A stretch of 64,000 nucleotides of DNA from Escherichia coli (GTDB taxonomy: Bacteria; Pseudomonadota; Gammaproteobacteria; Enterobacterales; Enterobacteriaceae), in NCBI RefSeq assembly GCF_045037415.1, contig NZ_CP173438.1, one strand, 5' to 3'. Shown here piece by piece: positions 30,401 through 33,400 of the stretch. The stretch's first letter is position 1. Each line of letters starts with the position of its first letter. Position numbers: made by a program.

Positions 30401-33400
30401 CCCTGGCAAATAACCCGAGTGTAACGCTGGCTGAACTGGCGAAAGAACCCTTTGTCTTTTTTGATCCGCACGTCGGAACAGGGCTGTATGACGATATTCT
30501 CGGGCTGATGAGACGTTACAATTTGACGCCCGTCATCACTCAGGAGGTGGGTGAGGCAATGACCATCATCGGTCTGGTTTCCGCTGGTCTGGGTGTTTCA
30601 ATTTTGCCTGCGTCATTTAAACGTGTTCAGCTCAACGAAATGCGCTGGGTGCCGATTGCTGAAGAGGATGCGGTTTCTGAAATGTGGTTGGTCTGGCCGA
30701 AACATCATGAACAAAGTCCGGCTGCGCGTAACTTTCGTATTCATCTGCTGAATGCTCTCAGGTGAGGGAAATTTCAGCGAAAAAGCCCGAAAAATGTGCT
30801 GTTAATCACATGCCTAAGTAAAAATTTGACGACACGTATTGAAGTGCTTCACCATAGCCTACAGATTATTTCGGAGCGCGAAAATATAGGGAGTATGCGG
30901 TGGTTGCTGAAAACCAGCCTGGGCACATTGATCAAATAAAGCAAACCAACGCGGGCGCAGTTTATCGCCTGATTGATCAGCTTGGTCCAGTCTCGCGTAT
31001 CGATCTTTCCCGTCTGGCGCAACTGGCTCCTGCCAGTATCACTAAAATTGTCCGTGAGATGCTCGAAGCACACCTGGTGCAAGAGCTGGAAATCAAAGAA
31101 GCGGGGAACCGTGGCCGTCCGGCAGTGGGGCTGGTGGTTGAAACTGAAGCCTGGCACTATCTTTCTCTGCGCATTAGTCGCGGGGAGATTTTCCTTGCTT
31201 TGCGCGATCTGAGCAGCAAACTGGTAGTGGAGGAGTCGCAGGAACTGGCGTTAAAAGATGACTCGCCATTGCTGGATCGTATCATTTCCCATATCGATCA
31301 GTTTTTTATCCGCCACCAGAAAAAACTTGAGCGTCTGACTTCGATTGCCATAACCTTGCCGGGAATTATTGATACGGAAAATGGTATTGTACATCGCATG
31401 CCGTTCTACGAGGATGTAAAAGAGATGCCGCTCGGCGAGGCGCTGGAGCAGCATACCGGCGTACCGGTTTATATTCAGCATGATATCAGCGCATGGACGA
31501 TGGCTGAGGCCTTGTTTGGTGCCTCACGCGGGGCGCGCGATGTGATTCAGGTGGTTATCGATCACAACGTGGGGGCTGGCGTCATTACCGATGGTCATCT
31601 GCTACACGCAGGCAGCAGTAGCCTCGTGGAAATAGGCCACACACAGGTCGACCCGTATGGGAAACGCTGTTATTGCGGGAATCACGGTTGCCTCGAAACC
31701 ATCGCCAGTGTGGACAGTATTCTTGAGCTGGCACAGCTGCGTCTCAATCAATCCATGAGCTCGATGTTACATGGACAACCGTTAACCGTGGACTCATTGT
31801 GTCAGGCGGCATTGCGCGGCGATTTACTGGCAAAAGACATCATTACCGGGGTAGGCGCGCATGTCGGTCGCATTCTTGCCATCATGGTGAATTTATTTAA
31901 CCCACAAAAAATACTGATTGGCTCACCGTTAAGTAAAGCGGCAGATATCCTCTTCCCGGTCATCTCGGACAGCATCCGTCAGCAGGCCCTTCCTGCGTAT
32001 AGTCAGCACATTAGCGTTGAGAGTACTCAGTTTTCTAACCAGGGCACGATGGCAGGCGCTGCGCTGGTAAAAGACGCGATGTATAACGGTTCTTTGTTGA
32101 TTCGTCTGTTGCAGGGTTAACATTTTTTAACTGTTCTACCAAAATTTGCGCTATCTCAATTTGGGCCAGGAAAGCATAACTTAGACTTTCAAGGTTAATT
32201 ATTTTCCTGGTTTATATTTGTGAAGCATAACGGTGGAGTTAGTGATGCTGAAGCGTTTCTTTATTACCGGTACAGACACTTCTGTAGGGAAAACGGTGGT
32301 TTCCCGCGCATTGCTACAAGCGTTAGCCTCCCAGGGAAAAACGGTTGCGGGATATAAACCCGTAGCGAAGGGGAGCAAAGAGACACCCGAAGGGCTGCGT
32401 AATAAAGATGCCCTGGTGTTGCAGAGTGTTTCAACCATCGAACTGCCTTATGAAGCAGTTAATCCTATCGCGTTAAGCGAAGAAGAAAGTAGCGTGGCGC
32501 ACAGTTGCCCAATCAATTACACCCTCATTTCAAACGGCCTGGCAAACCTGACCGATAAAGTCGATCATGTCGTGGTAGAAGGGACTGGCGGCTGGCGCAG
32601 TCTGATGAATGATTTGCGTCCGCTCTCTGAATGGGTGGTGCAGGAACAACTGCCGGTGTTGATGGTTGTCGGTATTCAGGAAGGTTGCATTAACCATGCA
32701 CTGCTAACAGCTCAGGCGATTGCCAACGACGGGCTGCCGCTCATTGGCTGGGTGGCTAACCGAATCAACCCAGGACTGGCGCATTATGCGGAAATCATTG
32801 ATGTGCTCGGTAAAAAACTTCCGGCACCGCTCATTGGTGAACTGCCTTATCTGCCGCGCGCCGAACAGCGTGAACTGGGGCAATACATCCGCTTAGCTAT
32901 GCTTCGCAGTGTGCTGGCGGTAGATAGAGTCACGGTGTAACGTCCGCGAAATTACCGACGCAATTACGCAGGCAATCAATAAACCGGGGAGTAGCTGATA
33001 CTCCCCGGTCATTTCACATATCATCAACGTCGACATAGTCGGCGCGTGCGTGGTCGCCGCCAACAGTGTCGCCATCCCGGTCAATCCGAGTAAAAGCGTA
33101 ATTTCTTCGCCATCAGGTAACCATAATCCCAGGCTACGACCATACAACATGCCAATGGCAAGACCGATAAATAGCGTCGGTGTAAAGACACCACCGGGCG
33201 CGCCAGAACCACTACTCGCCAGCACGGCACACAGTTTACAGAGGAAGATCCCGGCAATGATCATTAACAGTGGCGGAGCGGTTAAAAAGGATTGTACGGT
33301 GCTATAGCCGTTGCCCCACACTGCAGGTGTGAACAGGGAAAGAAGACCCACGATCAACCCGCCCAGTGCCAGTTGCCAGGGCGGCGCAAGCTTGAGACTC

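Follow-up and report, generated by a model that had tools for sequence, protein, structure and literature searches.

A conserved GC-rich stem-loop lies within the clcB gene of Escherichia coli, just past the 3′ end of the convergent gene ynfK, and the best explanation of the arrangement, to which we assign a probability of about 0.7, is that the transcription of ynfK would be terminated in a Rho-dependent manner, with the stem-loop embedded in clcB either protecting the message or acting as a weak terminator. Both genes belong to the 64,000 nucleotides of E. coli DNA analysed here (NCBI RefSeq assembly GCF_045037415.1, contig NZ_CP173438.1), the whole of which is referred to as the window, and their coding sequences share 48 bp in what, by the sequence and its conservation, is a genuine and ancient tail-to-tail dual-coding arrangement. 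This overlap is already on record, both in the reference annotation and in a published catalogue of transcript overlaps, and alone it changes nothing; the one new detail of the locus is the stem-loop within the clcB open reading frame (ORF), which would seem to be under selection.

The coding overlap of ynfK and clcB

The ynfK gene, now named bidA, encodes a dethiobiotin synthetase paralogue and occupies positions 32245..32940 of the + strand (231 amino acids plus the stop), and clcB occupies positions 32893..34149 of the − strand (418 amino acids with the K-12 start). The stretch that they share, 32893..32940 on both strands, comprises 48 nt and amounts in either frame to 16 codons, the stop being counted: these are YnfK codons 217–231 plus the stop on the + strand, and ClcB codons 404–418 plus the stop on the − strand. 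The stop codons, as found in the ORF list and in the sequence, are TAA at 32938–32940 (+) for ynfK and TAA at 32895–32893 (−) for clcB. RefSeq annotates the same overlap through PGAP in an identical strain (locus L001; bioD 1646–2341, clcB 2294–3586) and also in K-12 MG1655 (clcB 1665315–1666571, bidA 1666524–1667219). A previous interpretation made from the sequence alone (here, the sequence-only reading) had described a 48-bp convergent coding overlap between the two genes at this place, and ORFs, sequence and RefSeq annotation all confirm it.

That reading was also right as to what the genes are, a biotin-pathway paralogue and clcB: YnfK matches TIGR00347 (bioD) and aligns through its residues 3–220 with residues 2–224 of E. 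coli BioD, i.e., to the end of BioD (E 5e-65), and residues 1–418 of ClcB, to the last one, align with positions 12–429 of the 429 that make up the NCBIfam ClcB equivalog NF002437 (E 9e-260). The start of clcB differs by annotation, being placed at 34149 in K-12 (418 amino acids, MFRRLL...) and upstream, at 34185, by PGAP in other strains (430 amino acids), and the NCBIfam match, which begins at profile position 12, is compatible with either. Sequenced E. coli strains match the region with 100% identity, and 5421 of the 5426 complete E. coli genomes, or 5420 in a second count, carry it with at least 95% identity. In E. coli WGS1363 (H1, NZ_CP141204.1 739543–742519), ynfK is split by the insertion sequence IS1, and an IS1 transposase and two bioD fragments are annotated there.

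The two frames stand in a codon-for-codon antisense register, in which positions 1, 2, and 3 of the ynfK codons lie opposite positions 3, 2, and 1 of the clcB codons; for example, GTA GAT AGA GTC (V-D-R-V) on the + strand is the reverse complement of GAC TCT ATC TAC (D-S-I-Y) on the − strand, and the stop codon of each gene is a Leu codon (TTA or CTA) of its partner read in antisense. In bacterial genomes, tail-to-tail gene pairs with this codon-aligned antisense register are easily extended into the neighbour, and the present pair resembles them in that stops can arise only opposite TTA, CTA, and TCA. Because only these three partner codons create stops, the bare antisense frame would be open across 15 codons with P of about 0.5–0.6, and thus the overlap of the ORFs alone is not beyond chance. 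It is conservation, and not the openness of the frame, that establishes the overlap as real. The pair differs from other tail-to-tail antisense pairs in its 48 bp, which is long for a convergent overlap, and from lineage-specific slips of a stop codon in that the overlap is kept in both frames across many genera.

Conservation across the Enterobacteriaceae, which the sequence-only reading had proposed as a check, was followed in 80 loci of this family, the best matches of a genome scan with one genome per species. The length of ynfK is 231 codons in 80/80 species, including the 13 that lack clcB. An intact clcB is present in 63 of the 80 loci and overlaps ynfK in 63/63, by 27–66 bp (48 bp in 33 loci, 45 in 15, 66 in 11, 27 in three, and 39 in one); the other 17 loci either hold only a 3′ remnant of clcB (four) or have no clcB at all (13). 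Outgroups of ynfK outside the Enterobacteriaceae were also sought by homology search, and among the matches returned there were only relatives at least 86% identical. The assembly of L036 (CACSKA010000003.1) is labelled Chryseobacterium sp. 18061 and yet bears the typical ynfM-ynfL-mlc-ynfK-clcB locus of the Enterobacteriaceae, with a YnfK identity of 88%; a wrong label or a contamination is the probable cause.

The two protein tails can be considered separately. In ClC proteins, Tyr445 is the chloride-coordinating tyrosine. Tyr410 of ClcB falls at this position 445 in the alignments with the Salmonella ClC structure 1kpl (ClcB 6–411 against 37–446) and with the ClcA NCBIfam model (ClcB 6–412 against 35–445), and it closes the S-[IV]-Y motif of the family, Ser408-Ile409-Tyr410 (32920..32928, − strand), which is situated within the overlap, opposite V226-D227-R228 of YnfK. 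Distant ClC homologues (46–49% identical) all retain S-[IV]-Y and end 2–5 residues afterwards; a ClcB-like gene located away from ynfK has the C-terminus ...SIYANH*, and even the shortest ClcB found in nature, ...SIYR*, has 27 bp in common with ynfK. With the S-I-Y motif of ClcB inside the overlap, it appears that neither gene can be shortened.

On the + strand, codons 221–231 (32905..32937) form a C-terminal extension of 11 residues that is specific to YnfK and lies past the end of the BioD fold, and this extension plus the stop amounts to 36 of the 48 overlapping bases. D227, R228, and A231 are kept in 12–13 of the 13 genomes without clcB, via other codons (GAC CGT as against GAT AGA), and the encoding of the same tail residues by different codons indicates selection on the YnfK peptide. 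In a metagenomic Enterobacteriaceae contig (L084, 4261–4944), the Arg228 codon AGA has become TGA, which leaves a YnfK of 227 amino acids and an overlap of 36 bp, and there Ser408 of ClcB has merely passed from TCT to TCA; this contig shows that YnfK can lose its last four residues. As for the beginning of the gene, the sole invariant degenerate codon of ynfK is codon 4 (32254–32256), which is Arg4 CGT in 76/76 genomes (63 with clcB and 13 without), an invariance that probably reflects a constraint on the translation-initiation region.

These data bear directly on the idea that the overlap is an annotation artefact, YnfK or ClcB really ending earlier. In its favor are the antisense frame that may be open by chance, the location of the YnfK tail beyond the BioD fold, the variability of the last ~7 residues of ClcB, together with a clcB stop whose position shifts among species, and the metagenomic YnfK of 227 amino acids. 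However, YnfK has its 231 amino acids in all 80 species and keeps D-R-x-x-A even where clcB is missing, the S-I-Y of ClcB is family-wide and even the shortest ClcB runs 27 bp into ynfK, and the ClcB NCBIfam model extends to the final residue. The artefact is already contradicted by the conservation data and its probability is close to negligible. A shorter true C-terminus of ynfK or clcB, which the sequence-only reading had named as what could overturn the overlap, fails for both genes by conservation.

The substitutions within the overlap carry the mark of constraint from both frames. The stop of ynfK lies antisense to Leu404 of ClcB, encoded by TTA (49) or CTA (12), both of them rare codons; where clcB is present (n = 63) the ynfK stops are TAA in 51 genomes, TAG in 12, and TGA in none, and among the genomes without clcB the stop is TGA in nine of 13. 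Likewise, V226 of YnfK is fixed as GTA/ATA, the antisense of the Tyr410 codons TAC/TAT, only where clcB is present. In the core of the overlap, the first, second, and third positions of the ynfK codons have a variability of 0.99, 0.24, and 0.45 bits, which is the pattern of the clcB frame; the corresponding values in the genomes without clcB are 0.71, 0.34, and 1.55 bits, and the third-position value of 0.45 bits in the core is to be compared with 1.17 in the rest of ynfK. The ClcB frame thus dominates the overlap, and of the two partners it is the YnfK tail that tolerates more change.

A conserved stem-loop within clcB

The stem-loop, which we propose as a 3′-end element of the ynfK mRNA, is found at 32983..33009 of the + strand, 43–69 nt past the ynfK stop. 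On the opposite strand it corresponds to clcB codons T381–G389 (T-G-E-Y-Q-L-L-P-G) and precedes the clcB stop by 88 nt, that is, by 30 codons. It consists of an 11-bp stem with 7 G-C pairs and a loop of 5 nt, with a folding energy of −21.5 kcal/mol and a fold z-score of −5.8, and it stands at the same offset in 67/67 loci that have clcB or an in-register remnant of it. In protein terms the segment aligns with EMTDNYQLILP of ClC-ec1 (about residues 414–424); that it might encode the helix-R Tyr445 motif was ruled out, the equivalent of Tyr445 being Y410, inside the overlap. Other identities were also set aside. A repetitive extragenic palindrome (REP)-like repeated element was rejected, as the hairpin pattern occurs once in the window, and an Rfam scan of positions 30000–36000, with E up to 1, gave no family above its gathering score. 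A sub-threshold match to SR6_antitoxin (Bacillus) extends over the hairpin (32980–33083, +; 26.1 bits with E 0.32, the gathering score being 55), and this identity was judged to be spurious and driven by the hairpin.

The evidence for selection comes, firstly, from synonymous sites. Of 183 conserved degenerate codon columns of clcB, compared in 61 orthologues and with a median of 1.62 bits, only two have zero synonymous variation, T381 ACC and P388 CCC, and both are in the stem; CCC is a minor Pro codon, which accounts for 22% of the Pro codons of clcB. G382 has the 9th lowest synonymous variation (GGG 51, GGA 9, GGC 1). Secondly, the stem contains compensatory changes: pair 17–31 switches between G-C (18 sequences) and C-G (34) through the replacement E383Q in ClcB together with a synonymous change of Leu387 from CTC to CTG, and a second pair passes from G-C to A-U (3 sequences). 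Pairing in the stem reaches 92.7%, versus 19–43% in controls whose partners were slid by 1–3 columns. Compensatory changes and synonymous-site selection both point to a conserved RNA structure, though from few independent events; the covariation statistics are shuffle-based, without correction for phylogeny, and behind the E/Q switch there may be no more than about two events.

The strand on which the structure would act can be approached through wobble pairs. Single changes in the 8-bp core that leave a G-U pair number 9 haplotypes (24 species) in the ynfK sense and 2 haplotypes (2 species) in the clcB sense; at the synonymous sites of T381 and P388 it is only the clcB strand that would tolerate transitions, and neither of these sites ever changes. 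These figures concern the alternative in which the stem-loop serves clcB itself, by way of translation pausing or mRNA stability, or is a by-product of the ClcB sequence and its codons. The hairpin does not extend outside clcB, its fold on the − strand is just as good (−21.7 kcal/mol), a role in translation is conceivable for its rare codons GGG and CCC, its inner pair 20–28 wobbles on that strand only, and it was there that the scan tool made its terminator-like call. However, codon rarity cannot explain E383Q in conjunction with a synonymous change of Leu387, the wobble pairs favor the + strand by 9 haplotypes to 2, the arms of the hairpin remain intact after the deletion or pseudogene decay of clcB in several lineages, and the ClcB-like gene found elsewhere lacks the hairpin. 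A role in clcB itself, or none, is accordingly held to be quite improbable.

The fate of the stem-loop after the loss of clcB can be followed in several of these lineages. It is kept 8–23 nt past the ynfK stop in the clcB-less loci L046 and L078 (Trabulsiella), L056 (Lelliottia), and L009 and L016 (Citrobacter amalonaticus group), with arms that match the lineage (GGGGAG in Citrobacter, GGGCAG in the others), and in four pseudogene remnants of clcB (L010, L022, L051, and L058) the arms are intact and the flanks are decaying. The metagenomic contig L084 has the gene order ATP-binding cassette (ABC)-transporter operon, then clcB, then ynfK; this shows the order to be ancestral, and therefore, in the clcB-less loci with the ABC operon, clcB seems to have been lost specifically, with the hairpin left in place. 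The operon in question is of the OpuAC type, with four genes (~245, 300, 215, and 382 amino acids; Pfam BPD_transp_1, OpuAC, ABC_tran+CBS), and in some genera lies between dmsD and the clcB/ynfK end (L084 1–2882, L016 4773–8243, L056 4747–8207, and L009); it is absent in E. coli, and L084 holds both the operon and clcB.

Termination of the two transcripts

The stop codon of ynfK is inside clcB, and therefore the transcription of ynfK has to end inside clcB as well. Song and Cronan are said to have found, in 2021, that ynfK is expressed only under anaerobic conditions. The gene has been classed as directly FNR-activated (Myers et al., 2013), and the FNR-binding site reported for it, TTGAGATAGCGCAA (PMC1802558), has an exact match upstream of ynfK at 32146..32159. 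Downstream, a published Rho termination region (Adams et al., 2021) has its + strand peak at 32950 (K-12 1666514, 10 nt past the ynfK stop), an imprecise coordinate that derives from 800-nt windows; the reads upstream and downstream of this point are 85/11 in untreated cells and 292/159 in the presence of bicyclomycin (Rho score 4.2, p 1.5e-6). From these published counts (85 versus 11 reads), Rho suppresses about 87% of the ynfK-sense signal past the gene in aerobic lysogeny broth (LB).

The sequence past the hairpin offers a candidate region for the loading of Rho, a C-rich and G-poor stretch of the ynfK sense, antisense to clcB, at 33010..33209 (+), where the C/G ratio over 200 nt is 1.3–1.66, at or above the 90th percentile (window median 0.93, 95th percentile 1.48). 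As regards intrinsic termination, the GC-rich stem-loop is there, and the U-rich tract of about 7–9 nt is missing in E. coli: the + strand tail after the stem, UCAUUUCA, has 4 U in 8 and is not a canonical U-tract, true T tracts being found only in the clcB-less loci L009 (T8) and L016 (T7), which have acquired them on the ynfK strand. What is found in E. coli is rather what would be expected of a Rho terminator, namely, read-through that increases under Rho inhibition (published, in 800-nt windows), and a U-less stem-loop with C-rich sequence downstream of it. Dar and Sorek (2018; PMC6061677) describe Rho-terminated mRNAs with protective U-less 3′ stem-loops and rut sites immediately downstream, and the present locus resembles this class in its stable stem-loop without a U-tract, the C-rich sequence that follows, and the bicyclomycin-sensitive read-through; it departs from the class in that the stem-loop encodes protein as well, on its opposite strand, and is constrained jointly with ClcB, and in that the ynfK 3′ end would be placed by inference.

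In the Rho-dependent reading, the FNR-activated anaerobic transcription of ynfK would run into clcB, where termination must occur. RNA polymerase would transcribe the conserved GC-rich stem-loop in clcB codons 381–389, Rho would load on the untranslated C-rich antisense RNA just past it and would end transcription, and the stem-loop would define and protect the mature 3′ end of ynfK, although it may also be a weak intrinsic terminator. On the clcB strand the same hairpin would be translated, and the ribosomes would melt it. The structure, its conservation, and a Rho sensitivity of coarse resolution are observed, and it is from these that we infer the exact 3′ end and the protective role. When both genes are expressed, their mRNAs would overlap by at least about 117 nt.

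Apart from the coarseness of the Rho coordinate and the few events behind the covariation, a number of observations weigh against this reading: (i) the tail UCAUUUCA is fixed by the E-M-T codons of ClcB, so that it is uninformative on termination; (ii) the tail of the − strand in E. coli, UUUAUUGAUU, is as U-rich as that of the + strand, and a consensus terminator scan flagged the hairpin on the − strand only; (iii) the inner pair 20–28 is a U-G wobble on the clcB-sense strand only, in 27 sequences; (iv) the Adams et al. Term-seq and TERMITe tables, for aerobic media, contain no 3′ end of ynfK or clcB; (v) and finally, in L009, L016, and L056 the hairpin also faces the convergent ABC-transporter operon, and may have been kept for the operon.

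According to the sequence-only reading, either gene must have its terminator within its partner. As logic this stands, and for ynfK it agrees with the stem-loop and the Rho region; for clcB, no conserved terminator was found inside ynfK. Codons 150–216 of ynfK have no unusual synonymous constraint, RNAalifold applied in 23 species to 161 nt of ynfK past the clcB stop gave −7.4 kcal/mol and no covariation, and a partly conserved U-run (antisense of K190-K191 of ynfK) has no hairpin before it. Thus clcB appears to have no conserved intrinsic terminator inside ynfK, and its transcription would probably end by Rho-dependent or diffuse termination. The − strand call of the terminator scan was rejected as a clcB terminator, the hairpin being 30 codons before the clcB stop.

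That distance also bears on another proposal, that the stem-loop is a bidirectional intrinsic terminator which stops both convergent transcripts. With the bidirectional terminators known from SEnd-seq (Ju/Liu) and from a preprint (Wang et al., 2022) it shares a palindromic GC-rich hairpin between converging units; in E. coli it is accompanied on each strand by A-rich upstream sequence and a partly U-rich tail, and in L009 and L016 it has exactly the bidirectional form, that of a textbook terminator between ynfK and the convergent ABC operon. However, such terminators lie downstream of both stops, and the E. coli hairpin is 88 nt upstream of that of clcB, so that with clcB present the arrest of its transcription 30 codons early would yield non-stop mRNAs, and the hairpin cannot be a productive clcB terminator. 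Moreover, the E. coli hairpin lacks canonical U/A tracts, neither tail being a canonical U-tract, the tail of the − strand is not conserved, and read-through on the ynfK strand is bicyclomycin-sensitive. Bidirectional termination at this hairpin in E. coli is, in our estimation, very doubtful.

Possible antisense coupling and the meaning of the locus

From the overlap, the sequence-only reading had deduced transcriptional interference or antisense coupling between the two genes. This does not follow from the data, and the suppression by Rho, the failure to find a conserved clcB terminator in ynfK, and a ynfK that remains unchanged without clcB all weigh against it. In its most developed form, the overlap would be an evolved regulatory convergent excludon, in which the anaerobic, FNR-driven transcription of ynfK would lower ClcB, or the reverse, either by the collision of RNA polymerases, with the hairpin setting their meeting point, or by the action of RNase III, which would cut the duplex of at least 117 nt. 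The transcript overlap in vivo is taken from the literature only: in the genome-wide map made with ExcludonFinder (PMC12288877; Nucleic Acids Research (NAR), 2025), a table lists clcB-bidA among 165 convergent excludons, which were present in 50% or more of 58 E. coli transcriptomes. It can be added that a reported function of stem-loops is to set the place at which polymerases collide head-on between convergent genes (bioRxiv 10.1101/2022.10.23.513370), and that the arrangement is conserved in 63 species.

Against these points, the literature, as far as it was covered, yielded no pair-specific evidence or validation of reciprocal ynfK-clcB expression, the pair appearing there only as a table entry. 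Furthermore, Rho removes most of the ynfK-sense signal past the gene, which suggests that the antisense is suppressed rather than used; at least 17 of the 80 species have lost clcB or hold it in decay, and in them ynfK and its tail are unchanged, as the 3′ hairpin usually is; and the constraint on both protein tails is sufficient to explain the conservation of the overlap. With the excludons of that study the locus has in common a terminator inside the neighbour's transcription unit, and it is itself listed among them; it differs in that the usual excludon overlap falls in untranslated regions, with 95 nt as the mean intergenic distance, whereas here the coding sequences overlap, the candidate 3′ element is inside the ORF of the partner, and what is on record for the pair is transcript overlap.

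A selected regulatory module, with reciprocal expression of anaerobic biotin synthesis and of the ClcB Cl−/H+ exchanger, is thus considered unlikely. If it were true, the stem-loop would fix the site of polymerase collision or the end of the sense-antisense duplex, and, as a corollary, the RNA element of one gene would have shaped the protein of its neighbour, E383Q in ClcB changing only with the synonymous change of Leu387.

Elsewhere in the window, ynfF (36487–38059, −) measures about 1.5 kb, the expected length being about 2.4 kb, and is divided into two ORFs, 36561–37298 and 37295–38059. In the RefSeq record of the identical strain, ynfF is a frameshifted pseudogene, and ynfE is also interrupted there, by IS150.

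In summary, the locus is a worked example of layered constraint, tidy but unsurprising in kind, where, within 27 nt, one strand encodes a conserved segment of ClC and the other apparently forms the 3′ stem-loop of a convergent mRNA. The silent recoding of clcB, or its deletion, as in knockout collections, may disturb the expression of ynfK/bidA, and synonymous-site conservation can expose the RNA signals of a neighbour that are hidden in ORFs.

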